From NCBI GenBank assembly GCA_043822705.1, contig JBDRBK010000069.1, positions 1 to 44,851 of the forward strand: 44,851 bases of DNA, given 5' to 3'. The notes under the pieces were generated by a model. It saw only the letters and a list, made by a program, of their open reading frames with translations. It was not told the origin of the DNA and did not search any database. Below, one piece after another: positions 17,302 through 40,646 of this stretch. Source of the stretch: Fidelibacterota bacterium. Lineage in GTDB: Bacteria > Fidelibacterota > Marinisomatia > Marinisomatales > TCS56. Each line of letters opens with the position of its first letter. Positions within the stretch are counted from its first letter, which is position 1. A program made the translations under genes and the position numbers.

Positions 17302-19449
17302 ATGAAATCGATTCTTAAAACATCCGTTTTACTGATCTTAATAGGGACGATTAGCTATGCCGGTGGCGGCATTAGGCAACATAATCTGTTGCCGGTTCCC
17401 AGTGATATCGAATTCGGCGAAGGCTGGTATGTCATTGACAACGATTTTAAGATTGAAATACCAGACACTGCCGGTATGCGCTGCCCGGCGGCGGCGACCC
17501 GCTTTCTGCACCGGTTGGCGGGCCGAACCGGTATATTCTTTGAGCAGGGATTCGTCAGCGCCGGGGATAAAAAATCCACTGCTGTAACCATCGAATGCGC
17601 GCGGACCGGCCGGCTCGTAGTGGGTGAAGATGAAAGCTACACGCTGACCGTCACAACCGATCGGATCAGTCTGGTGGCCGAAACTGATCTGGGCGTGCTG
17701 CACGGACTCGAAACACTGCTGCAATTATTCGACAGCGATGGCACTAACTATTATTTCCAGGAAGCCACTATCAACGACGTGCCGCGCTTCCCCTGGCGCG
17801 GTTTAATGATCGACGTCTGCCGCCATTTTCAACCGGTTGAAGTGATCAAGCGAAACATCGACGCCATGGCGGCAGTGAAGCTTAACGTACTGCATTTACA
17901 CCTGAGCGAGGACCAGGGCTTTCGGGTTGAGAGTAAAATCTATCCCCGGTTGCAGCAGTACGGGTCGGACGGTGATTATTTCAGTCAGGAACAGTTGCGC
18001 GAGCTGGTTGCCTATGCCGGCCGACGAGGCGTCCGGGTTGTGCCGGAGTTCGATATGCCGGCCCACACCACCGCCTGGTTCCCCGGCTACCCGCAGCTAT
18101 CCAGTCGCGACACGGTCTATGCTATCGAGCGCCACTGGGGCGTGATGGACCCGGTGATGGACCCGACCCGTGAGTCGACTTATGAATTCCTCGATCAATT
18201 CATTGGCGAGATGGCCGCTGTGTTTCCCGATGAATATTTTCATATCGGCGGTGACGAAAACAACGGCGTTCATTGGGGCGCAAACCAGGCAATCCAGGAT
18301 TATATGCAGGCCAACGGTTACCAGACGGTCCACGAGCTACAGAGTTATTTTATCGACCGGGTCCGGCAGATCGTCAATAAGCATGGTAAAAAAATGATCG
18401 GCTGGGATGAAATTTACGATCCCGAAATGGACCGGGAAATTATTACGCAATTCTGGTCCTGGAACGGCTTGAAGCAATTGCAACCGGCGCTGGAACAGGG
18501 CTTCCGGGGAATAATTTCCAATGGTTACTATATCGATCTGTTCTGGTCGGCCGAGCAGCACTATTTGAAGGACCTGCTAAGAGCCGGTTTCATCACTGAT
18601 CCGGAATTCTCTGCCAATATCCTTGGCGGCGAAGTCACTGCCTGGTCCGAATTTATGACCCCGGAACTGATCGACGGTCGGCTCTGGCCGCGCACGGCGG
18701 CTGTAGCGGAACGGTTCTGGTCTCTGGCAACCGTAACCGACGTAGACGATCTGTACCGTCGTCTGGAAAATGTCAGCTTCCGGCTGGAGGAAGTGGGGTT
18801 GCAACACATCAAGAATTATTCGATGCAGCTCCGACGTCTGACCGGCAACCGTGTCAGCGCTCAATTGAAATTACTGGCCGATCTGGTCGAGCCGGTGGAC
18901 GGTTATCAGCGTCACCGCTTCGATTCCAGTCGCGTTTATACGTCCTATGCACCACTGACCCGGCTGGTAGACGTGGTCCAGGCCGATGCTTTCGCTGCCC
19001 GCCGGTTCCGGTCGCTGACGGCCGATTATCTGCAGGAATATACCGCCATAGTTGCCAATTCGGCTGATCTGCGGGGCCGCAAACGGGTGGCAGCCTTCAA
19101 GAAACTGGGGCAGGGTCCGGCCGGAATCGAACTGGCGCAGGTTCTTCGGATGTACCTGGATAATCATTCTGCCCTGGAGGAGGTTATCACAGCTAACCCG
19201 ATCCTGCAGGAAATCCGTCCCTTGTCTGCCGACCTCAGTGCTGTCGCTGCGGCTGGTTTGTGGGCGCTGGAATATCTGCAAACAGGAAAGACCGCCCCCG
19301 CCGATCACACCGCCGAACAACTGGAATTGCTGGAACGGGCGCTGCCGCCGCGGGCCGAATTGGAATTACGAATAGTGCCGGCCGTCATCGATCTGGTACG
19401 CGCAGCCGGCAACCTGCCTCCGGCTGATAAGGAAACCACATCACCATGA
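17302..19449 (+). CDS. Beta-N-acetylhexosaminidase, GH20, exported
   Basis: Signal peptide, DVPRFPWRGLMIDVCRHF, KLNVLHLHLSEDQGFR, PEFDMPAH, catalytic HIGGDE, WSE, WPR. Confidence 0.96.
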   Translation: MKSILKTSVLLILIGTISYAGGGIRQHNLLPVPSDIEFGEGWYVIDNDFKIEIPDTAGMRCPAAATRFLHRLAGRTGIFFEQGFVSAGDKKSTAVTIECARTGRLVVGEDESYTLTVTTDRISLVAETDLGVLHGLETLLQLFDSDGTNYYFQEATINDVPRFPWRGLMIDVCRHFQPVEVIKRNIDAMAAVKLNVLHLHLSEDQGFRVESKIYPRLQQYGSDGDYFSQEQLRELVAYAGRRGVRVVPEFDMPAHTTAWFPGYPQLSSRDTVYAIERHWGVMDPVMDPTRESTYEFLDQFIGEMAAVFPDEYFHIGGDENNGVHWGANQAIQDYMQANGYQTVHELQSYFIDRVRQIVNKHGKKMIGWDEIYDPEMDREIITQFWSWNGLKQLQPALEQGFRGIISNGYYIDLFWSAEQHYLKDLLRAGFITDPEFSANILGGEVTAWSEFMTPELIDGRLWPRTAAVAERFWSLATVTDVDDLYRRLENVSFRLEEVGLQHIKNYSMQLRRLTGNRVSAQLKLLADLVEPVDGYQRHRFDSSRVYTSYAPLTRLVDVVQADAFAARRFRSLTADYLQEYTAIVANSADLRGRKRVAAFKKLGQGPAGIELAQVLRMYLDNHSALEEVITANPILQEIRPLSADLSAVAAAGLWALEYLQTGKTAPADHTAEQLELLERALPPRAELELRIVPAVIDLVRAAGNLPPADKETTSP

Positions 19450-20927
19450 AATTGTCGGTAGTAATGATGAATCGCCTCATATTATTGGTTTTCCTGATAA
19501 CGCAATGTGGTTATTGTCTGGCTCAGCCGGCTTTAAACGAGCGGCTGCAGTTCATCACCGCCAATGACACTCTTAGCCGGGCCCAGTGGGGTATTTTCGC
19601 CCAGTACGTGGATGACGGCACAGTGCTGCTGGAGTATAATCACGATTACCCGCTGGCGCCGGCATCGGGCCTGAAAGCGCTCACTACCGGGCTGGCACTA
19701 CATACTCTGGGACCGGATTTCCGGTTTGAAACCGATCTGTATCTGGACGGTAAAATCAGTCGCAGCGGGGTACTGAACGGGAATATTCTGATCCGGGGCG
19801 GGGGCGACCCGACCCTGGGGTCGGATCTGGTGCCGGGTTCAACAGGTCTGGACAGTCTGATGCGGCGCTGGACCAATGCCGTCAAGGCCCGCGGTATTAA
19901 AAAAATCACCGGTGCCGTAATCGCCGATATTTCCCTGTTTGACGGGCAGGTTTTGCCCGATTACTGGCCCTGGACCGATATGGGTAATTATTATGGAGCG
20001 GCCACCAATTCGCTCTGCATCAACGATAATCTGTATTACCTGACTTTCAAACCCGGGCAGGTTGCCGGTGACCCGGCGCAGGTCCTGCGCTGTGAACCGG
20101 AGATACCGGGTCTGAAATTTGAGAATCACATGCGCACCGGCCCGATCGGGTCCGGTGACAACGGCTATATCTACTGCGCGCCGCGACAGTATCTGGCCAC
20201 GCTACGCGGCACCGTTCCCGCTGGTGTCGATGAATTCACAATCAAGGGATCGATACCGGATCCGGCCCTGTTCGCCGCCCAGTATTTGTCCGGCCGGTTA
20301 GCGGCGGCTGGAATCACCGTAAACGGACGGGCTAATGCGGATTCTGGACCGCGCAATTATGACCGGCTGGAACTGGTGGATCGCGTCAGTTCCCCGTCCC
20401 TGATCGCCATTATCAATCTGGTGCATCAGAAAAGTGTCAATCTTTATGCCGAACAATTGCTGAAGATAACGGCAGAAGTTACCAGTGATACGGGAAGTAT
20501 CGACCAGGGCCTCAAGCTGCTGTATGCCATGTTTGATTCGTTGGGGATCGAGCGCTTTGGGCTGGAACTTTACGATGGCAGCGGCTTGTCCCGCACCAAC
20601 CAGATTTCGGTCCGCCAGTTCAGCGCTTTTCTGCGGGCCATGGCCGATTTGCCGGATTTTGAACAGTACCTGACATCGTTTTCATTAGCCGGTGACCCGG
20701 CCGGAATTGGGTTTCTGAAGTCGTTCGGTAGTGGTACCGAACTGGCTTTCAACGGGAGGATCAAGACCGGTCTGATTAACGGCGCCCGGAGTCATTCCGG
20801 TTATCTGCGAACCCGTTCCGGGCGGCTGGTGACTTTTTCGATGATCTGCAATAATTACCCGGTACCTACCAGCCGGATAAACCGGATCCACGAACGACTG
20901 CTGATCGAATTGGCGCAACTGCCCTGA
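19446..20927 (+). CDS. dacB: D-Ala-D-Ala carboxypeptidase/endopeptidase (PBP4, peptidase S13)
   Basis: PASGLK (SxxK), SVN (SxN), KTG, GGGDPTL, DGSGLSR. ATGA overlap with the GH20 gene. Confidence 0.95.
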   Translation: MKLSVVMMNRLILLVFLITQCGYCLAQPALNERLQFITANDTLSRAQWGIFAQYVDDGTVLLEYNHDYPLAPASGLKALTTGLALHTLGPDFRFETDLYLDGKISRSGVLNGNILIRGGGDPTLGSDLVPGSTGLDSLMRRWTNAVKARGIKKITGAVIADISLFDGQVLPDYWPWTDMGNYYGAATNSLCINDNLYYLTFKPGQVAGDPAQVLRCEPEIPGLKFENHMRTGPIGSGDNGYIYCAPRQYLATLRGTVPAGVDEFTIKGSIPDPALFAAQYLSGRLAAAGITVNGRANADSGPRNYDRLELVDRVSSPSLIAIINLVHQKSVNLYAEQLLKITAEVTSDTGSIDQGLKLLYAMFDSLGIERFGLELYDGSGLSRTNQISVRQFSAFLRAMADLPDFEQYLTSFSLAGDPAGIGFLKSFGSGTELAFNGRIKTGLINGARSHSGYLRTRSGRLVTFSMICNNYPVPTSRINRIHERLLIELAQLP

Positions 20928-23257
20928 TGAGGATTATTCTGATGAAAAAATTCAAGTGGATATTGACAGCGCTGCTATTGATATTTTGCGGATCGGCCGC
21001 CGCCGGTCCGGCGACTATCAGGATTCTGGCAAGTGAGCGGGGTGGACCGTTCGTGTTGAAACTGGCAGAAATCAGTTCGGCCGGTGATTCAATCCGAATC
21101 CTGGATTCGGCGGTTCCGTTACCGGTGGTGATTCCAGGGCTGCAGGACTTGGGCTGGTTCCAAATGACATTACCTGTCGGCGATTCGACGATTCTCGCTA
21201 CGATTTTTACGGAAGATTCGGGGCTGGACACGGTCACAAGAGATTCCCTGGAAACGATCTACAAGTCGAGTCTGCTGCGGCGCGATCGCCGGTTGCTGCA
21301 GCACCTGACGCCGCCTTCCGACAGCACTGAATTTGCGTTCTTTATCCGGGACACCACACAGGCGGAAACCGGTCCGCTGGAAATACCCGCTTTTTACCGG
21401 ATGCTGGCTGATTCGGCCACCGGCACGGGATTAATCCGGTTGCTGCTACCGGGCCGGGCCGATACGCTCAACTGCCGACTGTTTCCGACCAGCTATCCGC
21501 CGGATTGGATCGAACTTTATTCAATCGAGACACTGTTCGCCGACATGATTGCCACCCGCGATTCCATCGATCATCTGTTGTTCACTTTTCCGGCCGATTC
21601 GGACACCATATACCAGGTGCAAGTCCGTTTCGGTGGCTGGGCCCGGGACACGGCAGCGGTCCTCATCATCGCCGGTGACACAGTGGATATCTACGCCAGT
21701 GGAGCTTTCGCCGGATTGTATAAGCTGGAACCGGGCTGGAATAACTATCCGGTGATCGTCACCACCGATACCAGTCGTCGGGAAATGGTCATGCAGCTAT
21801 ATAATCCACCGGCCAAGTACGAGTTTACCGGCGATCGTCCGGTACTGGTGGCGGAGTCGATCTATCCCGGTGAAAATATAATCTTCCGGCAACCGGACCG
21901 CCTGATCGTCCGGGTCCGTGGCAGCGCCGGCGGTACGGCGGAATTCAAGATACCCCATCTAACCGGCGGTTTCCGGCCGATGATGGAAATTACCGACGGA
22001 AACGGCAGCGACGGCAGCACCCTGTATGAAGGTGTTTTCGACATTTCCGGCTCCGACCGCTGCCGGCAGCAGCCGATCATTTTCCGGTTGAAAAACGCCG
22101 ATGGTAAGTCCGGTACGATTAGGTCCAAGGCCCGGATATCGGTGGCGATCGACCGGCAGCCGACGCTGGTGGTGACCGCCGACAGCGAGAGCCTGCTGAG
22201 GTACGCTCCCGGTGGTGAAATTCTTACCATCCAGCCCGCCGGAATTGTCCTGGAAACAATCGCGGAGTCGGATCGCTGGCTCAAAGTCCGTCTTTCCGAA
22301 AACCGTAGTGCCTATATTTACCGCTATTCGGTAAAAAATCTGCCGGCCGGCGGCGGTGCCCGCGAGGCAGCGCTTTACAGTATTTCTTCCACGGTGGATT
22401 CCGACTGGGTTTCGGTCAATTTTAATCTTTCCGCCCAGGTACCATTCCGGATCGTTCAGGGCAGCGACCCCCAGCGCCTTTCGGTGTATTTTTACTGCAC
22501 CCGATTTCAGGATGAGTGGACGGTCTATCCCGACAGCAGCGACCTGATCGAACAATTCGACTGGAACGCCGAGGATGACGACCTGCTGCGTTTCGATATC
22601 TACCTGAATACCAGTCAGCAGTGGGGCTATCGTGGTTATTACGAGGGCAACCGCTTTCGGCTGGATCTGAAGGTGCCCCCCCGGATCAATCCGGAAAATC
22701 CTTTTGCCGGCCTGACCTTCATCTTGGATGCCGGGCACGGTGGTCGGCACCGGGGCGCCGTCGGCAGCACCGGACTGATGGAAAAGGATGTGAACCTGGT
22801 CTACACCCAGTACCTGGGAAAAATGCTGCAGGAACGCGGCGCCCGGGTGGTTGTCACCCGACAGATAGATACAACGCTGTCACTGTCGGAGCGAATGGAC
22901 ATCGCCCGCCAGGAACATGGTGATATTTTCGTCTGGATGCACAATAACGCCGCCGGCTCGAGCCGCAATCCGCTGGAGGTTAGCGGGACCAGTACCTATT
23001 ACACCAGTCCCCAGAACTGGCCCTTCGCCCGTGCCGTCTATCCACGGCTGCTGGAGCTGGGACTGGAACCATTCGGTCAGGTCCACCGCACCTATTACAT
23101 CACCCGGCAGACCGATATGATCATCTTCCTGGTAGAGGGGGCGTTCATGCCCCATCCCGGTGACGAATTATTCCTGTTGTCCGACGACAACCTGCGGCGG
23201 CTGGCACAAGCGGTGCTGCAGGGATTGGAAGACCATCTGACCAGTCTGGCTAAATGA
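20927..23257 (+). CDS. N-acetylmuramoyl-L-alanine amidase (Amidase_3) with long N-terminal extension including SH3-like and AMIN-like regions
   Basis: ILDAGHGG, EKDVNL, WMHNNA, LVEGAFM (Zn ligands and catalytic Glu). WLKVRLSENRSAYI is SH3b-like. TGATG overlap. Alternative start at 20942. Confidence 0.92.
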   Translation: MRIILMKKFKWILTALLLIFCGSAAAGPATIRILASERGGPFVLKLAEISSAGDSIRILDSAVPLPVVIPGLQDLGWFQMTLPVGDSTILATIFTEDSGLDTVTRDSLETIYKSSLLRRDRRLLQHLTPPSDSTEFAFFIRDTTQAETGPLEIPAFYRMLADSATGTGLIRLLLPGRADTLNCRLFPTSYPPDWIELYSIETLFADMIATRDSIDHLLFTFPADSDTIYQVQVRFGGWARDTAAVLIIAGDTVDIYASGAFAGLYKLEPGWNNYPVIVTTDTSRREMVMQLYNPPAKYEFTGDRPVLVAESIYPGENIIFRQPDRLIVRVRGSAGGTAEFKIPHLTGGFRPMMEITDGNGSDGSTLYEGVFDISGSDRCRQQPIIFRLKNADGKSGTIRSKARISVAIDRQPTLVVTADSESLLRYAPGGEILTIQPAGIVLETIAESDRWLKVRLSENRSAYIYRYSVKNLPAGGGAREAALYSISSTVDSDWVSVNFNLSAQVPFRIVQGSDPQRLSVYFYCTRFQDEWTVYPDSSDLIEQFDWNAEDDDLLRFDIYLNTSQQWGYRGYYEGNRFRLDLKVPPRINPENPFAGLTFILDAGHGGRHRGAVGSTGLMEKDVNLVYTQYLGKMLQERGARVVVTRQIDTTLSLSERMDIARQEHGDIFVWMHNNAAGSSRNPLEVSGTSTYYTSPQNWPFARAVYPRLLELGLEPFGQVHRTYYITRQTDMIIFLVEGAFMPHPGDELFLLSDDNLRRLAQAVLQGLEDHLTSLAK

Positions 23258-23279: not shown

Positions 23280-24815
23280 ATGCTGAAAATAATCAAGCGC
23301 CATATTTTTTTAACGCTGACCGGTATCAGTGCATTGGTATATTTTTCCGGGTGCGCCCATTTTCGTCCGGTCGAACCGCCTGCCAGCGAAATGCGGGCAG
23401 TCTGGCTGTCGCGGTTTGAATACTGTCGCTACACTTCCAGCCACGATCAGGATTCGATCCGGGCCTATATTTCCGACACGATCGAAAAAGCCGCGCAGTC
23501 GAATTTCAACGTGGTGATCTTCCAGATTCGCGGCAGCGGTGACGCCTATTACCGTTCCGGTATCGAACCCTGGGGGCAGTTGCTGACTGGTAAGTTGGGG
23601 CAAGACCCCGGCTGGGACCCGCTGGAATATGCGGTTACTGAAGCCCACCGGCAGGGACTCGAACTGCATGCCTGGTGTAACACTTTTCCGGCCTGGCGGG
23701 GGCCGGGAGTACCACCAGAAACGGTACCGCGGTCGCCTTTTCTGGAACATCCCGAGTGGTTGGTCTGCGATTCCAGTGGCGTGCCGATGCCGGTGACCGA
23801 TCATTACGTTTCATTTTCGCCGGGAATACCGGCCGTCCATGATTACCTGGTCCGGATCGCCACCGATGTTGTCCGGCGCTATGATATCGATGGCTTTCAT
23901 TTCGATTACATCCGCTACCCCGAGCAGTCGCCGGAATTGGGCTATAGCCACGATTCGATCAGCGTGGCGCTGTTCAATTCATCGGCGGGCAATCCCTGGA
24001 AACTGGATTGGGAAGACTGGCAGCGTGAGCAGTTGACCCAATTTGTCTGCAAGGTTTATGATGCCATCACCACGATCAAGCCCTGGGTCAAGGTGTCGGC
24101 GGCCGTGATCGGTTCATACACCGGCAATGGCTGGACAGCCTACAACTCGGTTTATCAGGATGCGCGGCGTTGGACCGAACTGGGCAAGATTGATTTTATT
24201 GCCCCGATGATCTACCACCCGCGGTCGCACCCAACGGCTCCGTTCATGAAGCGATCCCTGGCCTGGAAAAACTATTATACCGTGGATCGCTACGTTTTTC
24301 CCGGAATCGGCAGCTATCGTTACAATACTGACAAAAAACCCTACACATGGCGCGAGACGGAAGGGCAGGTAAATGACCTGCGTAAAGAGGGTTTCCCGGG
24401 TATGGTCTTCTTCAGCGCCGGCAGCCTTGATGGTCACTGGGAGTCGATGCGAGCGAAGTATTTTTACAATCACGCCGATATTCCCGCAATGGACTGGAAA
24501 CCGGCGGTGGTATTATTGGCACCCCAGAATGTGATTGCCGACCTGAGTGAAAACCTGCTTACAGTCAGTTGGATGGATACATTGAATACCACTCAACTTG
24601 TCGCCTACGATATATATTGGGATGCGGACAGCAGCCTAAGCGATTCCACTTTGCTGTTAGGTACGGTTCCGGCCGATTCCGCCTTTATTTGGAGTACGGA
24701 ATGGGAAGGGGCGCCTGATTCGGTCAATATCGCCCTGAAAGCCCGGGACGGGCGGAGGAATGAGAGCCCATTTTCGCCGGCTGAGCGATTAGGTGTTGCC
24801 CAGCCTGAATATTAA
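23280..24815 (+). CDS. GHL10/DUF187 glycoside hydrolase lipoprotein (YddW/DigH-like) with C-terminal FN3-like domain
   Basis: Lipobox FSGC, EMRAVW, DPGWDPL, LELHAW, YDIDGFHFDYIRYP, DFIAPMIY. Ends with RRNESPFS. Confidence 0.9.
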   Translation: MLKIIKRHIFLTLTGISALVYFSGCAHFRPVEPPASEMRAVWLSRFEYCRYTSSHDQDSIRAYISDTIEKAAQSNFNVVIFQIRGSGDAYYRSGIEPWGQLLTGKLGQDPGWDPLEYAVTEAHRQGLELHAWCNTFPAWRGPGVPPETVPRSPFLEHPEWLVCDSSGVPMPVTDHYVSFSPGIPAVHDYLVRIATDVVRRYDIDGFHFDYIRYPEQSPELGYSHDSISVALFNSSAGNPWKLDWEDWQREQLTQFVCKVYDAITTIKPWVKVSAAVIGSYTGNGWTAYNSVYQDARRWTELGKIDFIAPMIYHPRSHPTAPFMKRSLAWKNYYTVDRYVFPGIGSYRYNTDKKPYTWRETEGQVNDLRKEGFPGMVFFSAGSLDGHWESMRAKYFYNHADIPAMDWKPAVVLLAPQNVIADLSENLLTVSWMDTLNTTQLVAYDIYWDADSSLSDSTLLLGTVPADSAFIWSTEWEGAPDSVNIALKARDGRRNESPFSPAERLGVAQPEY

Positions 24816-27027: not shown

Positions 27028-27295
27028 CTGGCTGTCCGTTTCTTGGTGCGATTTTAGGACTATCCACCCGAACTATTAAACCGAAATCTTGCCCGGAAAA
27101 TATTCTTTAGAAAAGTCGGTTTTAGAACCCGTTTAATTGTCCGTACGGAATGGAGAATCAATCACGATACGACGGACCGTGACGAATAACACTATTAATA
27201 TTAAGGAGTAGAAAATTCCCCTAGCATGCTTGTCACGACCCGGTTCGGGTGCTCTTAGTTGTTTACATATCCTGAAAATAACTGTGATAATTAAC

Positions 27296-27325
27296 TTGCA
27301 ATTCAATGCAGGGTCGAATTAGTTT
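27296..27325 (+). promoter_or_regulatory. Possible sigma70-type promoter for the 27512 gene
   Basis: TTGCAA-N18-TAGTTT in an AT-rich divergent intergenic region. Confidence 0.3.
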
Positions 27326-30649: not shown

Positions 30650-30661
30650 TATAATGTATTG

Positions 30662-30765: not shown

Positions 30766-33459
30766 ATGATGATCAGAAAACGTAATTTAGGGATTGTAAA
30801 GCTTTCAATCCTGGGTGCGCTGCTGTTGTCTTATGCGCTGGGTGCCTCGGGGAAGATCGCCGGAAAAATCACGAGTGCCGAGAATAATGATCCGTTGCCA
30901 GGCGTGAACGTGATCGTAGAAGAGCTGTCCATCGGCGCCGCCACCGATATCGATGGTAACTACGTGATTCTGAATGTTCCTCCGGGTGACTATACCGTGC
31001 GCGTGACTGCCATTGGTTATCAGAATGTCCGGTTAAACGATCTGCGGGTAAGCATGGACCAGACCAGCCGGCAGGATTTCGCACTGGCGCTGGAGGTGCT
31101 GGTGGGGCAGGAGGTGGTCGTGACCGCCGAACGTAAAATGGTTCGCAAGGACCTGACTGCCACCCAGAAAATCACCACATCGGATGAAATCAAGGAATTG
31201 CCGGTCGAAACCTTCCTCGGCGTACTGACAACCCAGGCCGGTGTCAACGTCGGCGCCGACGGCGCTCTGCATGTCCGCGGTGGCCGCTCCAATGAAGTCG
31301 GTTACTATATCGATGGTATTTCCGTAGCCAATCCCTTCACCACCAACGGTCTGGCAGTGAATATCTCCAACAAGGCTCTGGAAGAGATGAAAGTGGTCAG
31401 TGGCGCCTTCAATGCCGAGTATGGTAATGCCATGAGCGGGATCGTCAATATCCAGATCAAGGAAGGCGATGCCAATTATGAGGGCAGCTTGACGGTCCGA
31501 ACCGGTGATTACGTCTCCGGAAACGATCAAATCTTCATGAATATCGACGATGTAAATCTGATCACCAACAAAACCGTGGACTGGGCGCTTTCCGGTCCGA
31601 TACCATTCCTGACCAAACCGGGAATATTTACCTTCAATTTCAGTGGTCGTTACGCTAACAATGAAGGTTATCTATATGGCATGCGTGAACACAATCCGGA
31701 TGACTGGGCTTTCTTCCTCTTTGCCGATTACTGGTTTTATATGATGGGCGGCGACAGCAGCTATGTGGCGATGAATCCCAATACCAGGTTCAATACTTTG
31801 ACCAAGCTGACCTATCGTATCACCCCCAAACTGAAGATTTCGGCCCAGTATATAAATGATTCCCGTGAATATAAAGAATATACTCATGATTATAAATACA
31901 ATCCCGATGGCACCTACCAGTATTTCACGAATAACTCCAATCTTTCATTCAAACTGAATCAATCATTAGGCAATACTTTTTATACTATCAACGCCTATCA
32001 CAGCACGACCGACCACAAAAAGTATTTGTACGAAGATCCTTATGATAGTAATTACGTTTCATCATTTCAGATAATGGGAACGCCACCGACGACGACCTTC
32101 CTGTTCGGTGGTACGCAGATGGATCATGTTTACCAGACCTCGACCACCGACGGCGGTAAATTTGATATTACCAGCCAGGTTTCGACCATGCATGAAGTAA
32201 AAATCGGAGCCAGTGTCCGCGTCGACCAGTTGCAAGACGATAATTTTACAATTCTGTATGACAGCCAGGAATATGTCGAACCGACCGTTCTGGAGGCCAA
32301 CGATTCCCCCTGGCATAATTATTACGATGAGCAAGCGACATTCTATTCGGCTTACATCCAGGACAAGATGGAATATCCGAATATGATCGTCAATGTCGGT
32401 ATCCGTGGTGATTATTTCGACCCCCACGCTCGTTACATCGATGACCTGCTGCACCCCGAAGCCGATGAAAGCTGGAAAGATGCCGATCCCAAAACCATGA
32501 TTTCACCACGGTTGGGCGTGTCTTTCCCGATTACCGATGAAGGTATTTTACACTTTTCCTACGGCCACTTTTATCAATTACCGTCGCTGTCCAATCTTTA
32601 CCGCACCCGTATTTTCGGGGCCGGTCTGGCGCCGACTGTCGGCAACGCCAATCTTAAGCCGGAAAAAACCATTCTGTATGAATTTGGTCTGCAGCAGCAG
32701 TTGACCCGGATTCTGGCCATCGAGACCAGCATTTTCTATAAGGATATCCGCGATCTGTTGGCTACTCAGTCGATCCGCTACGACTCACCTAATTACGGTC
32801 CATCGAACTATGCCATTTACCTTAACAAGGATTATGGTGCCGTCAAAGGTATCGCCCTATCGTTGACCAAGCGCTGGGATCGCGTCTCCAAAACATCGGC
32901 CTTTATCGATTATTCCTACCAGGTCACGGAAGGTAACAGCGTCAGTTCCGGATCGTTTTATTTTAACGCTTTGACCGGTGAGGAAGAAGAGAAGAAGATC
33001 GTACCCCTGAGTTGGGATCAGAGTCATATTTTGAATGCCACGGTGACGTTCAGTGAGCCCGGTAGTTGGGCTCTGAGTCTAATCGGTGGTCTTTCCACTG
33101 GTTGGCCCCACACCCCGAATATCCCTACCGCCAATTACGTTCCGCGGGAAAACAGTGCTCGCAAGCCGATTCAACAGAATGTCGACCTGCGTGGCTCGAA
33201 AAATTTCCGTTTTGGCGGCCTGAACCTGACCCTCCTGGTCCAGGTTTATAACCTGTTTGATATTCTGAACGAACGGTATGTATACGACGATACCGGACGC
33301 GCGGGATACACTTATGTCAATCGTTCAGCCGAAGAAATCGCCGCTTTTATTGCCCACTATGGCGAGCCGGGTATTCATACCTGGGAGGAGTACCAGGTAC
33401 GCCCCAGCTATTATACGGCGCCGCGCTCGGTTCAACTCGGCCTGACGGTAGAATTTTAA
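30766..33459 (+). CDS. TonB-dependent receptor with carboxypeptidase-regulatory-like N-domain
   Basis: GKIAGKI..PLPGVNV, HVRGGRSNEVGYYIDG, SGAFNAEYGNAMSGIVN, ISPRLGVSFPI, GNANLKPEKT, YNLFD. Terminal F. Confidence 0.95.
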   Translation: MMIRKRNLGIVKLSILGALLLSYALGASGKIAGKITSAENNDPLPGVNVIVEELSIGAATDIDGNYVILNVPPGDYTVRVTAIGYQNVRLNDLRVSMDQTSRQDFALALEVLVGQEVVVTAERKMVRKDLTATQKITTSDEIKELPVETFLGVLTTQAGVNVGADGALHVRGGRSNEVGYYIDGISVANPFTTNGLAVNISNKALEEMKVVSGAFNAEYGNAMSGIVNIQIKEGDANYEGSLTVRTGDYVSGNDQIFMNIDDVNLITNKTVDWALSGPIPFLTKPGIFTFNFSGRYANNEGYLYGMREHNPDDWAFFLFADYWFYMMGGDSSYVAMNPNTRFNTLTKLTYRITPKLKISAQYINDSREYKEYTHDYKYNPDGTYQYFTNNSNLSFKLNQSLGNTFYTINAYHSTTDHKKYLYEDPYDSNYVSSFQIMGTPPTTTFLFGGTQMDHVYQTSTTDGGKFDITSQVSTMHEVKIGASVRVDQLQDDNFTILYDSQEYVEPTVLEANDSPWHNYYDEQATFYSAYIQDKMEYPNMIVNVGIRGDYFDPHARYIDDLLHPEADESWKDADPKTMISPRLGVSFPITDEGILHFSYGHFYQLPSLSNLYRTRIFGAGLAPTVGNANLKPEKTILYEFGLQQQLTRILAIETSIFYKDIRDLLATQSIRYDSPNYGPSNYAIYLNKDYGAVKGIALSLTKRWDRVSKTSAFIDYSYQVTEGNSVSSGSFYFNALTGEEEEKKIVPLSWDQSHILNATVTFSEPGSWALSLIGGLSTGWPHTPNIPTANYVPRENSARKPIQQNVDLRGSKNFRFGGLNLTLLVQVYNLFDILNERYVYDDTGRAGYTYVNRSAEEIAAFIAHYGEPGIHTWEEYQVRPSYYTAPRSVQLGLTVEF

Positions 33460-33483: not shown

Positions 33484-36400
33484 ATGAGAACACAGAAACA
33501 ATCTTTATACTCCCGATGGAGCCTGATATTTGTCATCATCATGGGGGTCGCTTTACTACAGGGCAAAGGCCTGTTCTCAAAAGAGCAGCAGACCGAAATA
33601 CAATACCCGGACGGTCCCAAAAAAGAATGGTCGCCGTCACAAATGGCGAAATATTCCGACTGGTATCAGAATGTAATGGCCCGGCAGATCGCTGCCGCCG
33701 AGGACGATCAGTTATTGCGGCGCCAGAAGGCGATCCTGATGGGTAATAAAATCACGACCGAAATCTGGAATTTCGGTTCCATCAGTTCACCCGGCAACAA
33801 GACTACCGATATCGTCTGGGAAGGTCTGGGCTATGGTTATGAATTCGGTCCGTTTATCTGTGCCGAAGTGGAAGTCGATTCCGGCAGTCATCTGGATGCC
33901 TACCCGGTCGAGGTTAACGGCACGACCGTTTGGAAAGCACGGGTGATCAGTGATGGTCTGGTCTCTCTGGAAGGCGAACGTTCTCCGGATGGTAAAGAAT
34001 TCTGGGCCTGGGAACCGCTGGTGTACAGCGATAACGGTGTGCCCTACGCCGACCCCGAAAGCGAATACATGCCGGTTTCCACCGATATCGACCGCGACGG
34101 TGATGGTAAACCGGACAGTTGGCCGGAAGGCTGGTATAATCCCAATATCAAGCAATATGTCTGGCCCGGCGCCCTGAAACAGGGTTCCTCCAACTCCGAC
34201 ATGGAGTCATTTTTCGTGGTCGATGATCGGGCCAATCGCGAATTTACCTATTATCCTTTCCCCGATGACAGCAGCCGCCGGGGACTGGGCCTGGAAATCG
34301 AATGCCGTTACTACCAGTGGGCCAACCCCCTGGCCGAGGATATCATTTTCCTGATTTACAAGGTGACCAATAAGAGTCCCAAGGATCTGACCGAAGTCAT
34401 CTTCGGTATGTGGGGTGACCCGCATATCGGTGGACCGCTCAATTATGGCGACGACCTGTCTTTCTTCGATCATAATTTAAATATGGTCTATGCCTGGGAC
34501 GAGGACGGTAAGAGCGACAAGGTGGGGGTAGCGCCGGGGTATTTTGGTTACAAATTCCTGGAAAGTCCGGGCAATCCCTTTGATGGTATCGATAATGATG
34601 AAGATGGAATGATCGATGAGGCCCAGGACAATAACATCGATGACGATGGCGACTGGAATATCGATAAGGATGACGTAGGTGTAGACGGCGTACCCAACAC
34701 CGAGGACGAAGGCGAAGGTGACGGAGTACCTACCGCCGGCGACCAGTTCGACATCCGCAAACCGGGCGAACCGAATTACGAATGGACCGACCTGGACGAA
34801 TCCGATATGGTCGGCCTGACCGGTTTCTCGGCACCGCCATTTGTCAGCCAGAACAAAATCTCCAATGATCATTACGTTTATGAAAATTTCCTGAATATCG
34901 GTGTTTTCGACTCGGCCAATTCCAATTCCGCCGGTGATTATGTTTTCATTTACAGCTCCGGAAAAATCGACCTGCCGGCCTACTCGTCGCGGCGCTTCTC
35001 GATTGCTCTGCTGATCGGCCAGAATTACTCTGACCTGACCCTGAATGCAGTCACGGCCCAGGATATCTACGAGAAAAACTATCAATTTGCCAAACCGCCG
35101 GAGAAACCGACTGTGACAGCGGTGCCTGGCGACAGTAAAATCACGTTGTATTGGGATGATGTGGCGGAGGCTTCCGTCGATCCGATTTCGGAGAAAAAGG
35201 ATTTTGAGGGCTATGTCATCTACCGCAGCATCGATCCGCAGTTTGCCGACCAGCAGAATATTACCGATTCCTATGGTTCGAGCTTTATGCTGGAACCTTT
35301 GGAACTGATAACCGGCGCACCGGCTAAATTCGACCTGGATAATGAGTATTTCGACTTGTCCAGTGTACCGTTCCCGGGTCGGGGGGTCTTCTACAATCTG
35401 GGCAACAATACCGGCCTGCGGCATTCCTTTGTCGATTCGAACAAGGTCGATAACGGCCAGAATTATTATTACGCCGTCGTGTCTTATGACCACGGTGACG
35501 ACAGCTTGATGATACCGCCAACCGAGTGCTCGCGAACAATCACCCTGAATCCGGAAACCAATGAAGTGATTCTCGATATCAACACCATCAAGATCATGCC
35601 GCGAGCACCGGCGGCTGGTTTTACCGAAGGCCATGTCGAGGCTAATGCCATCGATCATATTGCCGGTTATTCCACCGCCAATGTCGATCTTGAAATCATC
35701 GACACGCGCATGCTGGAGGAAGATAATCTGTTCGAAGTTACGTTTAAAACAGCTCCGACACGTTATTCGGTCGAGGACCTGAAGCCGGTGAAAGACACGA
35801 TCTATGTTCGCCTGGAACAGTATGTGCGAACCACCTACGAGCACCTGAATGATACTACTTTTGTATTGAGTACACTGGATGGCAGTCAGGTTTTTCAGGA
35901 CAGTATCGATTACGTTCTGATTCCCGAAACCGGTCAGTTTCTGGCCTGTTCGACCGGAGCGCTGCAGGACCGGGAATATTATCTGGCGACCTATCGCTAT
36001 TTCCCGGTTATCGAGAGCGAATTGTTGAATATGGAAGAAAACAACCCGGTGTTTGATGGTGTGAAAATCTATGCCAAAGATGTAACACTGGATTTGGATA
36101 CGAATAAAACCGGATGGACCGCTACCAGTTATTCGAACTGGGTTGGTGCCGTTAAGCCATATAACAACATCATTACCAAGAAGTACCCGGCCGATTATGA
36201 AATTCGCTTTTTCGATACGCTGGTGGATTCCAGCAGTCAACCAGGGAAAGGCTTTATTAAGTGTAATTTCGAAATCTGGGATGTGACCCCGGGCCGCCTG
36301 CCCACCAAGAACCGAATGGTGATTCTCGAAATAACTGCAACTAAAGATAGTCTTTTCACCCCCGGTGAACGTGTCGCCATCCTGCTGGGGGATACCCTTG

Positions 36401-36888
36401 TCGTAACCACCTGGGAATTCACCTTCACCTACCCGACTTCCGGCGATACGATCGCTCCGGGGGCCGGCGATGTATTTTATATCGCCACATCCCGGCCGTT
36501 CACAAGTGAGGATGTCTACCAGTTTACCACCGTTTCATCGAAAATCGATCCCCGCCAGGCCAAGATCGACCTGGACGATATCAACGTCATTCCCAATCCC
36601 TATAACGTGACCAATACACTGGAGCAGTTGGATCATCAGAATCCGCGGGATCGTGGTCCCCGGCGGTTATACTTCAACAATCTACCGCGTCAGTGTACGA
36701 TCCGAATCTATACCATATCCGGTGAACTGGTCCGGGTGTTGGAGCATGATGCTCCCGCCGATAACGGAATCGAATACTGGGATTTAACTACCCGCGATAA
36801 TTTCCCGATCGCATATGGCGTTTATATTTACCATGTCGACGCCGGCGACCTGGGCGAAAAGATCGGTCGCTTCGGGGTGATAAAATGA
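33484..36888 (+). CDS. Large secreted protein of unknown function with Asp-rich Ca-binding insert, FN3-like domain and T9SS-like C-terminal domain
   Basis: RBS AAGGAG, signal peptide. GDSKITLYWD..FEGYVIYRS..NYYYAVVSYD is FN3-like. C-terminus VIPNPY..YFNNLP..IRIYTISGELVR..WDL..AYGVYIYHV..FGVIK. Confidence 0.8.
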   Translation: MRTQKQSLYSRWSLIFVIIMGVALLQGKGLFSKEQQTEIQYPDGPKKEWSPSQMAKYSDWYQNVMARQIAAAEDDQLLRRQKAILMGNKITTEIWNFGSISSPGNKTTDIVWEGLGYGYEFGPFICAEVEVDSGSHLDAYPVEVNGTTVWKARVISDGLVSLEGERSPDGKEFWAWEPLVYSDNGVPYADPESEYMPVSTDIDRDGDGKPDSWPEGWYNPNIKQYVWPGALKQGSSNSDMESFFVVDDRANREFTYYPFPDDSSRRGLGLEIECRYYQWANPLAEDIIFLIYKVTNKSPKDLTEVIFGMWGDPHIGGPLNYGDDLSFFDHNLNMVYAWDEDGKSDKVGVAPGYFGYKFLESPGNPFDGIDNDEDGMIDEAQDNNIDDDGDWNIDKDDVGVDGVPNTEDEGEGDGVPTAGDQFDIRKPGEPNYEWTDLDESDMVGLTGFSAPPFVSQNKISNDHYVYENFLNIGVFDSANSNSAGDYVFIYSSGKIDLPAYSSRRFSIALLIGQNYSDLTLNAVTAQDIYEKNYQFAKPPEKPTVTAVPGDSKITLYWDDVAEASVDPISEKKDFEGYVIYRSIDPQFADQQNITDSYGSSFMLEPLELITGAPAKFDLDNEYFDLSSVPFPGRGVFYNLGNNTGLRHSFVDSNKVDNGQNYYYAVVSYDHGDDSLMIPPTECSRTITLNPETNEVILDINTIKIMPRAPAAGFTEGHVEANAIDHIAGYSTANVDLEIIDTRMLEEDNLFEVTFKTAPTRYSVEDLKPVKDTIYVRLEQYVRTTYEHLNDTTFVLSTLDGSQVFQDSIDYVLIPETGQFLACSTGALQDREYYLATYRYFPVIESELLNMEENNPVFDGVKIYAKDVTLDLDTNKTGWTATSYSNWVGAVKPYNNIITKKYPADYEIRFFDTLVDSSSQPGKGFIKCNFEIWDVTPGRLPTKNRMVILEITATKDSLFTPGERVAILLGDTLVVTTWEFTFTYPTSGDTIAPGAGDVFYIATSRPFTSEDVYQFTTVSSKIDPRQAKIDLDDINVIPNPYNVTNTLEQLDHQNPRDRGPRRLYFNNLPRQCTIRIYTISGELVRVLEHDAPADNGIEYWDLTTRDNFPIAYGVYIYHVDAGDLGEKIGRFGVIK

Positions 36889-37940
36889 TGAGACAAACAA
36901 TGATCAAAACAAATTTAACGGGACTGCTGGCAGTCTCATTACTGGTCGTGCAATTCGGATGGGCACAGATAGCGAATACCCAAACGATTACTAAAACCGG
37001 CACCACCGCCGCCTCATTTCTGAAGATTGGCGTCGATGCCCGCAGCACGTCTATGGGTAACGCCTATGTGGCCATGCCCGGCGATGTCAATTCGATTTTC
37101 TGGAATCCGGCGGGTCTGGCCGGGATCAAGGGAGTAGAAGCGGCCTTCAATTCCAGTGACTGGTTAGCCAGCACGGATTTAACCTTCATTGCGCTGGCCT
37201 TCAACGCCCCCGGTGTCGGCGTGCTGGGTCTATCCATAACCCAACTGTCGATACCGGAATCGCCGGTGCTGACCGTATCCGATCCCAAAGGGACCGGCGA
37301 ATTATGGGATGCGTCTGATATCGCTATCAACCTGGCTTTCAGCCGTAAACTTTCCGACCGTTTTTCACTGGGAGTCAACGCCAAGTACGTGCAAGAGCGC
37401 ATTTGGCACTCTTCCGCAAAAACGATGGCTGTCGATATCGGTGCTTTGTTCGTCACTCCGATCAAGAATATTCGTCTGGGCGCAACGATTTCCAATTACG
37501 GTGGAACGATGCGGATGTCCGGCCGTGACCAGTATTTCGATAACGACCCCGATCCGGACAACCAGGGTAACGTGGAAATTGTTAATGCGACCTACGAAAC
37601 CGACAAATTCCCGCTGCCACTGCTGTTCCGCGTTGGAATCTCCGGCGAACTGATCCAGACGGCGAACATGCGCCTCAGTTACGGGCTGGATGCCATGCAT
37701 CCCAATGACAATGTGGAAGCCGTCAATGCCGGTATGGAGTACGCTTTTGCCGAGACATTCTTTCTTCGCGGCGGTTATGCCAACCTGTTTAACGAGGATG
37801 CCGAGGAAGGATTGAGTATCGGTGGCGGTATCAACTACCGGATCTGGGGCAGTTCCAGTATTCTCAAGGTCGATTACTCCTACACGGTTTTTAACCGGCT
37901 GGTTGGCGTCCCGCGGGTTTCCGTTGGAGTAAAATTTTAG
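36885..37940 (+). CDS. PorV/PorQ-family (UPF0164) outer-membrane barrel
   Basis: KTGTTAASFLKIGVDARSTSMGNAYVA..IFWNPAGLA, FLRGGY, VDYSY. Terminal F. ATGA overlap with the upstream gene. Confidence 0.88.
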   Translation: MMRQTMIKTNLTGLLAVSLLVVQFGWAQIANTQTITKTGTTAASFLKIGVDARSTSMGNAYVAMPGDVNSIFWNPAGLAGIKGVEAAFNSSDWLASTDLTFIALAFNAPGVGVLGLSITQLSIPESPVLTVSDPKGTGELWDASDIAINLAFSRKLSDRFSLGVNAKYVQERIWHSSAKTMAVDIGALFVTPIKNIRLGATISNYGGTMRMSGRDQYFDNDPDPDNQGNVEIVNATYETDKFPLPLLFRVGISGELIQTANMRLSYGLDAMHPNDNVEAVNAGMEYAFAETFFLRGGYANLFNEDAEEGLSIGGGINYRIWGSSSILKVDYSYTVFNRLVGVPRVSVGVKF

Positions 37941-37962: not shown

Positions 37963-37993
37963 AAAAAGCCCTGTTATTTGCAGGGCTTTTTTT
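37963..37993 (+). terminator. Intrinsic terminator
   Basis: aaaaagccctg-ttatttg-cagggcttttttt. Confidence 0.85.
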
Positions 37994-38074
37994 ATATTCG
38001 CCGGAATTACTTAACCGAATTGATTGGATTCAGCAATGAAAAATGACGTTCTCGATCAATTTCCGCTCCGTGGC

Positions 38075-39505
38075 ATGGTCAAAACAGGTTTAGTTTCGTG
38101 GCCGTTATGGATAACCTTAATGATCATGTCCTGCGCAAAACCCGGTGACGATTACCACACGCTGATCGACCGCGGTGAATTTACCGCCGCCGCTTCCGCC
38201 ATCAGGAATCGGTTGAGCGCCATGCCGACACCCGGCGAGCGCCTGCAATTGGAATTCGAGCTGGAACGCCTCAACCGCATCCGGCAGGATTTCCAGGGTA
38301 TGGAGGAGGAGGTCCGGGAATATGTGCGCCAGTATATACCCCAGGCAACCGCCGCCGATTTTGCCCGCTGGGAAGCCAGTCGCGCCCTGGAATCGCGCCT
38401 GATCGATGGTGAGAAACGCTATTTCAACCGGGCCGGACGTAACCTGTTTCGGATTGACCCGGAAGCGCGAAAAATCTGGGAAAAGCTGCACCCGGAAGAT
38501 GACGCCGCCGGTTCCGGTGTCGCTAAGGGAATCGATAGCCACAACGCCGAGATCATCGCTTCCATAACCGGTGGGGAATCGGGATTCGTCAAACCGGTGC
38601 GTTTGAAGATCACCCAAAGCATTGCCGTGAACGCCGACGCCGTCCCGGAAGGTGAGACTGTCCGCTGCTGGATACCTTTCCCGCGGGAAATCGCCGGGCG
38701 GCAGGATGACATAAAATTGTCGGTGACCGAACCACGACAATATATACTGGCACCGGGCGACCAGTTACAACGGACGATCTACCTGGAAAAACCTGCACGG
38801 GCGGGGGAGCAAACGAAATTTTCCGTATCTTATGAATACACCAGCAGGGGCGCCTGGATGGCTATCGTGCCCGAGCAGGTGACTGCGGTTGCCCGGGACG
38901 ACCTGCAACCATACCTGCAAGAGCGACCGCCACATATCGTTTTTACGCCCGCATTGCGGGCTATATCGCAGGAAGTGTTGGGGGGTGAGACCAACCCCTA
39001 CCGGATTGCGCAAAAGCTGTTTAAATGGGTCGACGATAATATTCCCTGGGCCTCGGCGCGGGAATATTCTACGATCCGCAATATCCCACAGTATGCCGTT
39101 GACAACCGCCACGGCGACTGTGGTATCCAGACTCTGACGTTCATGACCCTGTGTCGGTTGAACGGCATTCCGACCCGCTGGCAATCGGGCTGGGAGTTCA
39201 AACCGCCCGATGACAGCATGCATGACTGGGGTATGATCTATTTTGAGCCTTACGGCTGGCTGCCCATGGATGTTACCTACGGCATCCGCGCTGTCAGCGA
39301 CGAACGGGGGCGGTGGTTTTATCTCGGTGGTATGGACAGCTACCGTACGATCTTCAACGACGATTATTCCCAGCCGTTTTACCCGGCCAAGATTCATCCC
39401 CGCTCGGAAACGATTGATTCCCAGCGCGGCGAAGTGGAATGGCGGGGCGGCAACCTGTATTTCGATCAGTGGGACTGGTCCCACGAATGGGTGATTATTC
39501 AATAA
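38075..39505 (+). CDS. Transglutaminase-like cysteine protease domain protein, probable lipoprotein
   Basis: HGDCG, CRLNGIPTRWQSGW, HDW, GWLPMDVT give a Cys-His-Asp triad. Lipobox-like IMSC. Alternative start at 38036. Confidence 0.88.
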   Translation: MVKTGLVSWPLWITLMIMSCAKPGDDYHTLIDRGEFTAAASAIRNRLSAMPTPGERLQLEFELERLNRIRQDFQGMEEEVREYVRQYIPQATAADFARWEASRALESRLIDGEKRYFNRAGRNLFRIDPEARKIWEKLHPEDDAAGSGVAKGIDSHNAEIIASITGGESGFVKPVRLKITQSIAVNADAVPEGETVRCWIPFPREIAGRQDDIKLSVTEPRQYILAPGDQLQRTIYLEKPARAGEQTKFSVSYEYTSRGAWMAIVPEQVTAVARDDLQPYLQERPPHIVFTPALRAISQEVLGGETNPYRIAQKLFKWVDDNIPWASAREYSTIRNIPQYAVDNRHGDCGIQTLTFMTLCRLNGIPTRWQSGWEFKPPDDSMHDWGMIYFEPYGWLPMDVTYGIRAVSDERGRWFYLGGMDSYRTIFNDDYSQPFYPAKIHPRSETIDSQRGEVEWRGGNLYFDQWDWSHEWVIIQ

Positions 39506-39536
39506 CACGTCCAAACGGAAATAAGGAAACAACACG

Positions 39537-40646
39537 ATGTACGGACCCCGAGCAGTAATTCATCTTGATAATCTGGTTCATAACTATAATGTAGTTAAAA
39601 AACACCTGGGCGGTCGCCGATTGATGACCGTGGTCAAGGCCGATGCCTATGGTCATGGCGCCGTCGAATGCGCCAAGGCGCTGAAACAGGCCGGCAGCGA
39701 TTATTTCGCCGTGTACACCGTCGGTGAAGCGCTGGAATTGCGCAATGCCGGGATTACCGACGAAATCCTGATTTTCAGTCGTACCGACCGCGACGAGATC
39801 GCCGCCGCCGTCAATAACAATCTGACCCTGATCATTTCCTGGAAGGACGATCTGGACTGGTTCGCCGACCATTACCGGCAGACCGGCCGGAGCCCGAAAC
39901 TGCACCTGAAAATCGATACCGGCATGACCCGCCTCGGCGTTGCCTGGCAGGAGGTACCAGCCCTGTTGCAGCAGATTCAAAGCACGCCCGGAATTGAGCT
40001 GGAAGGCATGTACTCCCATTTCGCCACCGCCGATGAAGGCGATCCTTCTTATGCGAAATTTCAACTGGACAATTTCAACGCCTGTGTCGCTGCCGCTAAA
40101 AAACTGGAAATGGCAGTCAAATATGTGCATTTTTCAAATAGCGGGGCGGTTTTGAACCATCCCGACGCCTGGTTTGATCTGGTGCGGGTGGGACTGCTGC
40201 TCTACGGCGCTTTCCCCTCCAGTGAAGTGCCGCAGGACCTGCCGATCAAACCGGTGATGGATTACCGGGCCTCGATCACCACCGTACGGTCGGTGAAGGC
40301 CGGTATCCAGATCAGTTACGGCGGTGTATACGCCCCGCCGACCGATACCACGATCGGTGTGATCCAGTGTGGATTCGCCGATGGTTTCCCCCGGCCCTGG
40401 TTCGCCATGGGACACGTCATGTACAAAGGCCGCAAATTCAAGATTGCCGGGCGTGTCTGCATGGACCAGTTCATGGTAAATTTCGCAGGGGAACAACCGC
40501 CGGTGGGTGATGAGGTGCTGATTTTCGGTGACGATGGCGAGAACGTCATCCGCACCGAGGAAATTTCCGTTGCTATCGGTCTGACACCCTACACGCTGCT
40601 GACGGCGATTCATGGCCGGACGAGAAGGGTCTATATCGGAGAATAA
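39537..40646 (+). CDS. alr: Alanine racemase
   Basis: VVKADAYGHG (PLP Lys), HLKIDTGMTRLG, SHFATAD, ISYGG, GRVCMDQ. Confidence 0.97.
   Translation: MYGPRAVIHLDNLVHNYNVVKKHLGGRRLMTVVKADAYGHGAVECAKALKQAGSDYFAVYTVGEALELRNAGITDEILIFSRTDRDEIAAAVNNNLTLIISWKDDLDWFADHYRQTGRSPKLHLKIDTGMTRLGVAWQEVPALLQQIQSTPGIELEGMYSHFATADEGDPSYAKFQLDNFNACVAAAKKLEMAVKYVHFSNSGAVLNHPDAWFDLVRVGLLLYGAFPSSEVPQDLPIKPVMDYRASITTVRSVKAGIQISYGGVYAPPTDTTIGVIQCGFADGFPRPWFAMGHVMYKGRKFKIAGRVCMDQFMVNFAGEQPPVGDEVLIFGDDGENVIRTEEISVAIGLTPYTLLTAIHGRTRRVYIGE

Follow-up and report, generated by a model that had tools for sequence, protein, structure and literature searches.

We describe a probable locus for the use of exogenous peptidoglycan in a member of the Marinisomatota (Fidelibacterota). 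It occupies positions 17302 to 40646 of contig JBDRBK010000069.1 (assembly GCA_043822705.1); the window, that is the whole stretch of 44,851 nucleotides that was analyzed, is the entire contig (C69) of a 3.34 Mb genome that is 93% complete and 6% contaminated. Wall-active enzymes adjoin a cassette made up of a TonB-dependent transporter, a large orphan protein that we call X, and a PorV-like barrel. The best explanation is a SusD-less locus, resembling a polysaccharide utilization locus (PUL), that probably imports and catabolizes peptidoglycan fragments from outside the cell. Some role of the cassette in handling wall fragments is highly probable. The argument draws on genes with intact motifs, linkage of the cassette to peptidoglycan genes across families, paralogues sorted by substrate, a host type IX secretion system (T9SS) translocon and sortase, and predicted folds.

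The cassette forms a probable unit of four genes, FG-GAP protein, transporter, X and barrel, with gaps of 116, 24 and -4 bp, closed by a bidirectional terminator-like hairpin (37963..37991; a stem of 12 pairs and T runs on either strand). The TonB-dependent transporter (30766..33459, + strand; CarboxypepD_reg, plug and barrel; PF00593 and PF07715) does not belong to the SusC family, as TIGR04056 reaches 73.9 bits against a cut-off of 368 and covers residues 30-236 only. SusD (PF07980) was found neither in the window nor in the genome, with the control positive, and the description of the architecture as SusD-less in an earlier note on this DNA therefore stands. A SusD-lacking phylum as a general statement was rejected, since SusD matches, one to three per genome, occur in 18 of 61 genomes from the order. 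The FG-GAP protein (27512..30649, +; Pfam/NCBIfam; model predicted local distance difference test score (pLDDT) 79.7) is a secreted double beta-propeller with a type-A-like T9SS tail. Its model, two propellers plus tail, has the layout of PorZ, which is also the top Foldseek match (5m11, E 3e-13). The protein is a candidate surface glycan binder that accompanies the cassette. The idea of a PVL-like lectin for N-acetylglucosamine (GlcNAc) found no support: no such lectin is among the 50 listed matches of either fold search.

X (33484..36888, +; 1134 aa) lacks a lipobox and gave no Pfam, NCBIfam or PDB profile match; ESM Atlas returned only unnamed clusters, and Foldseek with the whole model (pLDDT 74) returned weak, partial matches only. 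The model is all-beta, with an N-terminal beta-supersandwich (about residues 75-530) carrying acidic repeats, followed by further beta domains. The N-domain resembles those of GH15 and GH94 enzymes (9ju0, Z 18.2, root mean square deviation (r.m.s.d.) 3.2, 250 aligned) but lacks their catalytic barrel, and residues 1028-1134, a C-terminal T9SS sorting domain, superpose on the T9SS tail of PorZ (5m11, Z 12.3, r.m.s.d. 1.9, 88 aligned). From these folds we propose that X may be a SusD-analogous surface partner of the transporter. The barrel gene (36885..37940, +) overlaps the X stop by 4 bp and belongs to the PorV/PorQ family (NF033709, 204.6 bits against a cut-off of 90). It falls below the PorV equivalog (NF033710, 86.7 against 250), and its six NCBIfam matches are PorV/PorQ-type, FilD and BamG models, none of them PorP/SprF. 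The complex predicted for the X tail (residues 1005-1134) and the barrel scores 0.93 against 0.42 for the best control, on a scale where 116 of 157 solved pairs and 2 of 215 mismatched pairs attain the mark; runs share at least 83% of contacts, and partner pLDDT is at least 76. PorV-tail complexes have already been solved, so that this score may reflect likeness to them and not cognate specificity. We propose the barrel as a putative cognate shuttle and anchor for X.

The module had been presented as special to peptidoglycan, and in this respect the picture changes. The genome encodes 13 separate PorV/PorQ-family genes above cut-off (14 table rows) and about 12 transporter-X-barrel cassettes, of which this is one paralogue, and adjacency alone therefore proves little. 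Although cassettes of this type are generic, the neighbors of its orthologues point to substrate specificity for the present copy. Flanks of orthologues and paralogues were fetched, neighbors were annotated with Pfam/NCBIfam on representatives rather than on every open reading frame, and marker genes were counted within 10 kb of each X. The survey comprised 98 distinct X sequences, 7 of which, being under 800 aa, were excluded from the tree and counts. Among the 53 rows of the orthologous clade (support 100), 28 have a peptidoglycan gene no more than 10 kb away, and 17 of the rows without one are short contigs. When at least 7.5 kb of upstream sequence is available, the fraction is 24 of 32 loci. 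The linkage spans 15 different marker families and six of the seven GTDB families sampled (f1 3/7, f2 1/1, f5 1/1, f8 3/3, f10 2/3, f14 4/4 and f11 0/1, counts that include two fragments, the f11 locus having a flank of 2.8 kb).

The window's own enzymes are kept only in family f1 (genomes G002, G004, G005 and G006, at 55-81%), and most enzymes linked to the cassette elsewhere are not orthologous to them. In other families the neighbors are PGRP-type Amidase_2, tailed GHL10, tailed Amidase_3, LdcA (LD-carboxypeptidase), NamZ, AnmK, DUF1460, VanX (D-Ala-D-Ala dipeptidase), a second DacB type and a NagB-like protein, together with MpaA and LysA above NCBIfam cut-offs. A secreted amidase often flanks the cassette directly. 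The swapping of enzymes while the substrate is retained is the strongest argument for a peptidoglycan link. SpmA/B-like Gate proteins also occur among the neighbors, and an AmpG-like permease lies further off. These SpmA/SpmB-like membrane pairs recur beside LdcA and the cassette (L003, L007, L022, L025, L032, L060 and L117) and are a candidate inner-membrane transporter for wall fragments. Two orphans, a 700-aa tailed protein (L032:4771-6882) and a 385-aa protein (L001:9234-10391), turn up repeatedly beside DacB and the cassette across several families and also in f23; neither has a Pfam family besides the tail, and both are candidate wall hydrolases.

Cassette paralogues sort by substrate. 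A control paralogous clade (G000:C30:10000-29999, L098, of the host genome, and L124-L133) accompanies GH13, GH57, GH77, phosphorylase and TrmB genes and is an alpha-glucan utilization locus of the same SusD-less design. With its neighbors scanned against all Pfam, 12 of its 14 rows have alpha-glucan genes and 1 of these, where cassettes of both kinds are adjacent, is near a peptidoglycan gene as well; alpha-glucan genes accompany none of the orthologous rows. Two paralogous clades lie nearer, and 7 of their 16 rows have a peptidoglycan link. Another cassette of the host (G000:C70:70000-87608, L100), whose X gene is in two pieces, is flanked by gamma-glutamyltranspeptidase, Asp/Glu racemase and an M14-like peptidase, and is possibly a locus for poly-gamma-glutamate or a D-amino-acid polymer.

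The host encodes the T9SS translocon SprA (592 bits against 200) and the sortase PorU (593 against 420). For the GldL/M motor, the GldM model has no match in the genome, yet it is silent in the control genomes too. Two classes of tail are present, 12 X-type and 76 ordinary, and the tail of X matches neither TIGR04131 nor TIGR04183. A PorV-like barrel follows within two genes after 9 of the 12 X-type tails (directly in 7, with one further case at a contig end) and after 5 of the 76 ordinary ones. T9SS tails are frequent among enzymes neighboring the cassettes (19/20 Amidase_2, 11/17 GHL10 and 6/10 Amidase_3 sequences) and were found on none of the LdcA, DacB, NamZ and NlpC neighbors. Tailed wall hydrolases of this genome lie on C82, beside another cassette, and on C177. 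The stretch G000:C82:14743-55749 (L095-L097) holds three cassettes in tandem, separated by corrinoid methyltransferase genes (MttB, B12-binding). Behind them come two Amidase_3 proteins and a GHL10, all tailed, with a C92 peptidase; this is a second cassette of the genome with a link to peptidoglycan. At the contig end G000:C177:1-8157 (L112) there are LdcA, DacB, NamZ, a tailed GH18, LysA and a tailed M14, and another contig end (G000:C167:822-2786) has SpmA/SpmB-like Gate proteins with LdcA.

All twelve genes named in the earlier note are in place, with Pfam/NCBIfam matches above cut-off for the families assigned. Catalytic motifs are intact in all eight enzymes of the locus; signal peptides were assessed by eye and lipoboxes by regular expression only. 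The genes fall into four probable units, the cassette being one and the others GH20-DacB-amidase-GHL10, ykfC-epimerase and transglutaminase-like protein-alr. The hydrolase unit, with gaps of -4, -1 and 22 bp, opens with a GH20 beta-N-acetylhexosaminidase (17302..19449, +; PF00728, E 1e-91; HIGGDE motif; Sec signal) that would remove terminal GlcNAc, presumably in the periplasm; its orthologues in G002 and G005 are 60-61% identical and lie in the same operon. A DacB/PBP4 (S13) DD-carboxy/endopeptidase follows (19446..20927, +; TIGR00666 above cut-off; SxxK, SxN and KTG intact), and a divergent second DacB, a 26% paralogue, lies on C177. The N-acetylmuramoyl-L-alanine amidase (Amidase_3; 20927..23257, +; PF01520) has a long N-terminal region and intact Zn ligands. 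This type of Amidase_3 is patchy across the order (17 of 61 genomes) and is accessory, a separate AmiC-like amidase being encoded on C33; further amidase, DacB and GHL10 copies occur elsewhere in the genome. The last gene encodes a GHL10 (DigH/Cwp19-like) glycan hydrolase (23280..24815, +; PF02638; Cwp19 5oq2, E 3e-39), a lipoprotein with the lipobox FSGC.

On the opposite strand, the L-Ala-D/L-Glu epimerase of the enolase superfamily (24812..25825, -; PF13378/PF02746), which is cytoplasmic, matches PDB 3iji (E 1e-153), presumably the dipeptide epimerase of Bacteroides thetaiotaomicron. Its neighbor YkfC (25822..27027, -; PF00877, PF18348), a gamma-D-glutamyl-diamino acid peptidase of SH3b-SH3b-NlpC/P60 architecture, is a lipoprotein (lipobox LGSC) with an intact Cys-His-His triad and matches dipeptidyl-peptidase VI (3npf/3pvq, E 1e-70; 3npf, E 6e-71). 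YkfC requires a free N-terminal L-Ala on its substrate. Both are single-copy in the genome, and the two genes overlap (-4) with catalytic residues intact, as in a YkfB/YkfC stem-peptide pair. In Bacillus and Bacteroides, ykfB and ykfC likewise encode a neighboring peptidase and L-Ala-D/L-Glu epimerase for stem-peptide breakdown; in contrast, the pair here sits between a hydrolase operon and an outer-membrane cassette. Both proteins resemble Bacteroides sequences to an unusual degree, and YkfC has close orthologues in four genera of family f1 only (f7 relatives are at 42-46%), so that, judged from sequence, the pair was probably gained horizontally from Bacteroidota. The divergent intergenic region of 484 bp (27028..27511) probably holds, by its spacing, promoters for ykfC-epimerase and for the cassette; a consensus promoter-like match at 27262-27291 is not evidence of function.

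Downstream of the hairpin, the transglutaminase-like gene (38024..39505, +; PF01841; Cys-His-Asp triad; probable lipoprotein from a later start) is tied to the cassette only in family f1, with synteny in G002, G004, G005, G006 and G008. The alanine racemase gene alr (39537..40646, +; TIGR00492) is a housekeeping gene next to the locus and not a dedicated part of it. A catabolic role for alr within the locus is ruled out: it is the genome's sole copy, a terminator stands between, it occurs in 58 of 61 genomes, and it is unlinked elsewhere, sharing the cassette's contig only in G002, G004 and G005 among those compared. The statement that no wall-synthesis gene is present thus fails on alr itself, and a separate copy was found for dacB, on C177, and not for alr, where the window copy is the housekeeping one. 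Two further features lie outside the locus. At 4234-9526 there is a second TonB receptor module (GC 0.42) with DUF4876 and a 501-aa orphan and without a PorV-like gene, its receptor having paralogues on C48 and C125. At 40704-44474 a 1256-aa T9SS-tailed orphan shares its N-terminal 450 residues, at 50-55% identity, with three C51/C75 proteins, one of which is the X-type partner in another cassette.

Peptidoglycan utilization by this locus would proceed from the outside in. Outside the cell, T9SS-tailed amidases and GHL10 enzymes, encoded near the cassette in relatives and on C82 here, would precut large walls. At the surface, X, held by the barrel, and the propeller protein would capture fragments for import by the TonB-dependent transporter; contact between X and the transporter, the direction of transport and the nutritional use are our inferences. 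In the periplasm, going by family activities, GHL10 and GH20 would shorten the glycan, DacB would open cross-links and trim D-Ala, the amidase would free stem peptides, and YkfC would turn these into L-Ala-D-Glu and diamino acid. In the cytoplasm, the epimerase would convert L-Ala-D-Glu to L-Ala-L-Glu, AnmK/MurQ and a NagB-like fusion, encoded elsewhere, would process the amino sugars, and LysA would make lysine from diaminopimelate.

The genes that the earlier note proposed to look for, murQ, anmK, namZ and an ampG-like gene, are all present elsewhere in the genome. Since murA is above cut-off on C187, wall auxotrophy of the organism is ruled out; with murA and the Mur ligase cluster on C214 present, imported fragments would serve as food or a supplement and not as an essential wall source. 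Division genes are clustered away from the window. No mpl match rises above cut-off in the genome, and freed tripeptide is therefore probably broken down and not re-ligated. A 791-aa NagB-like protein with an HxDD deacetylase-type motif (G000:C36:7473-9848, L109), encoded near anmK and a sodium symporter, may substitute for nagA, which was not found. Related cassettes, at about 40% identity, occur in 11 of 15 f25 and 12 of 13 f23 genomes, by a census in which only four candidates were scored per genome; murA was found in 0 of the 15 and 2 of the 13. GHL10 adjoins the related cassette in both f23 loci examined (n=2). One such related cassette, in G114:C34 (L148), stands between a sodium symporter on its upstream side and murB-murA immediately downstream.

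Several observations weigh against the import and catabolism of foreign wall fragments. Eight long-flank loci are negative: five of KSB1/Calditrichota/Cytophagia type, one Marinisomatota locus, G002 and G008. In the five, cassette identity is 59-68% and hydrolases of peptidoglycan are absent from the 10 kb around it, alr lying about 10 kb upstream in two; G002 and G008 have the enzymes at a distance of 15-22 kb, behind other cassettes. The linkage rows are related by kinship, a single amidase family accounts in part or in full for 20 of the positives, and the markers were compiled from genes first met near these cassettes. No inner-membrane transporter or regulator lies in the locus, and nagA and GH3 nagZ were not found in the 93%-complete genome, a gap that GH20, NamZ and the NagB-deacetylase fusion possibly fill. 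In three f25 loci the related cassette adjoins a sodium symporter and no hydrolases. Lastly, the window hydrolases are periplasmic or lipoproteins: their claimed export is borne out by signal peptides and by the lipoboxes of GHL10 and YkfC, but none carries a T9SS tail, and they could act on the cell's own wall.

This last point favors a salvage system, in which the cassette recaptures muropeptides shed from the wall of the cell or its clone-mates. The genes anmK and murQ and the AmpG-like permease serve anhydro-muropeptides, typical of turnover, and the excerpts of PMC4173781 available propose Xanthomonas NixC as an importer of bacterium-derived muropeptides; the earlier argument that recycling of the own wall needs no outer-membrane importer was accordingly too strong. 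Tailed secreted amidases and GHL10, however, make sense only with polymer beyond the outer membrane, mpl is missing above cut-off, and YkfC, the epimerase, LysA and the NagB-like proteins destroy building blocks rather than reuse them, which leaves salvage unlikely. We give similarly little credence to another GlcNAc-rich or peptide substrate (chito-oligosaccharides, N-glycans or glycopeptides) around which wall genes gathered through shared amino-sugar catabolism and regulation. GH18 and GH20 are among the neighbors, X has no substrate-diagnostic domain, and the KSB1/Calditrichota orthologues lack peptidoglycan linkage, but most linked genes target stem peptides or N-acetylmuramic acid (MurNAc) (amidases, LdcA, MpaA, VanX, NamZ and AnmK), and the enzyme directly beside the cassette is often a secreted amidase.

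A contact-dependent lytic apparatus, with surface adhesins that grip live prey and secreted hydrolases that lyse it, would suit the large surface propeller and beta proteins, the secreted amidases and the roughly 76 tail-bearing proteins of the genome. It is very unlikely, given that an identical cassette architecture serves alpha-glucans and that the peptidoglycan of diderm prey is shielded; no gliding motor was found either, by a GldM model silent in controls. Feeding on prey, one part of the original proposal, is unsupported. Chance adjacency of housekeeping wall-remodeling genes and a generic TonB cassette would be in keeping with single-copy housekeeping alr, with single copies of YkfC and the epimerase, and with the number of cassette paralogues, yet it is largely refuted by a linkage that recurs in six families with varying enzymes and by the clean alpha-glucan control, the amidase is patchy and duplicated by other copies, and division genes cluster on another contig; we consider it scarcely credible. 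The possibility, raised at the outset, that the module sits beside unrelated genes in relatives does not apply to Marinisomatota, where the 24 of 32 linked loci speak otherwise; the five KSB1/Calditrichota-type loci do not show the linkage. Uptake of foreign wall fragments by a system outside the SusCD type, as first suggested, keeps the support of this linkage in six of the seven families, with alr set apart as housekeeping and the module itself recognized as generic.

Peptidoglycan is a large carbon and nitrogen pool in necromass, and its degraders and their means of passing it across the outer membrane are poorly known. The present locus provides candidate genes for a marine and subsurface phylum that is abundant and nearly uncultured, its sole isolate living on the muropeptides of others. 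It also offers a marker by which substrate niches might be predicted in phyla that yield little to PUL finders based on SusC/SusD, and points to the use of the T9SS, outside Bacteroidota, in building transporter lids. Tentatively, and with rather less confidence, we suggest that a TonB transporter, a T9SS-exported all-beta partner and a cognate PorV-like anchor may constitute an undescribed, SusCD-independent class of nutrient capture (Marinisomatota, KSB1, Calditrichota and Ignavibacteria), with this clade as a dedicated peptidoglycan importer for necromass feeding by widespread marine Marinisomatota (SAR406) and deeper relatives as a muropeptide route in wall-auxotrophic members. In the literature searched, mostly titles and the beginnings of abstracts and exclusive of subscription papers, we found neither an account of the three-gene cassette nor one of a peptidoglycan utilization locus in the phylum; the capture core is apparently undescribed, and the substrate apparently unusual for a PUL-like locus. 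A 2017 preprint on SAR406, in the part available, reports expanded Por-tail proteins, TonB receptors and possible peptidoglycan degradation and leaves them unlinked (10.1101/095471), and the accessible text of a 2024 review of muropeptide transporters does not mention TonB (PMC11509177).

One of the closest parallels is Fidelibacter multiformis IA91, the one cultured member of the same phylum, which according to the accessible text of PMC11652737 uses exogenous muropeptides for its wall, carbon and energy by way of MurNAc 6-phosphate etherase. Exogenous wall fragments as a source of carbon and energy would be common to both, but the class of IA91 is described there as lacking wall-synthesis genes, whereas the genome studied here has murA and a division and wall cluster; that text names no outer-membrane importer. 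The GlcNAc CUT system of Xanthomonas campestris is alike in its SusD-less TonB transporters and glycoside hydrolases, and its NixC is indirectly implicated in the uptake of peptidoglycan fragments; as far as the excerpts of PMC4173781 go, it differs in having no T9SS partner or PorV-like barrel and in centering on GlcNAc-glycans and not on stem-peptide enzymes. The pairs of T9SS type-B cargo and PorP/SprF shuttle (SprB-SprF and PG1035-PorP) share the arrangement in which a cargo gene, with a tail class of its own, directly precedes the gene for its barrel, and the barrel is proposed there to retain the cargo on the surface (PMC12618676 and PMC9143113, in the portions available). Here, by contrast, the barrel is of the PorV/PorQ family, the tail matches no type-B model, the host phylum lies outside Bacteroidota, and the pair shares its operon with a TonB-dependent transporter, TonB and SusC being unmentioned in the accessible part of PMC12618676. 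The SusC/SusD PUL of Bacteroidota, whose working mode as given in the excerpt of PMC13543919 is comparable, agrees in its TonB-dependent transporter with an adjacent large surface partner, in hydrolases for one polymer alongside, which are conserved with the transporter here in 24 of 32 orthologous loci and in the alpha-glucan control clade, and in paralogues sorted by substrate. It differs in that the transporter here is not of the SusC family and a SusD-family lipoprotein was not found in window or genome; in place of a tetratricopeptide repeat (TPR) lipoprotein the partner is a T9SS-tailed, all-beta protein, a PorV-like barrel belongs to the core, and the secreted enzymes bear T9SS tails in place of lipid anchors.

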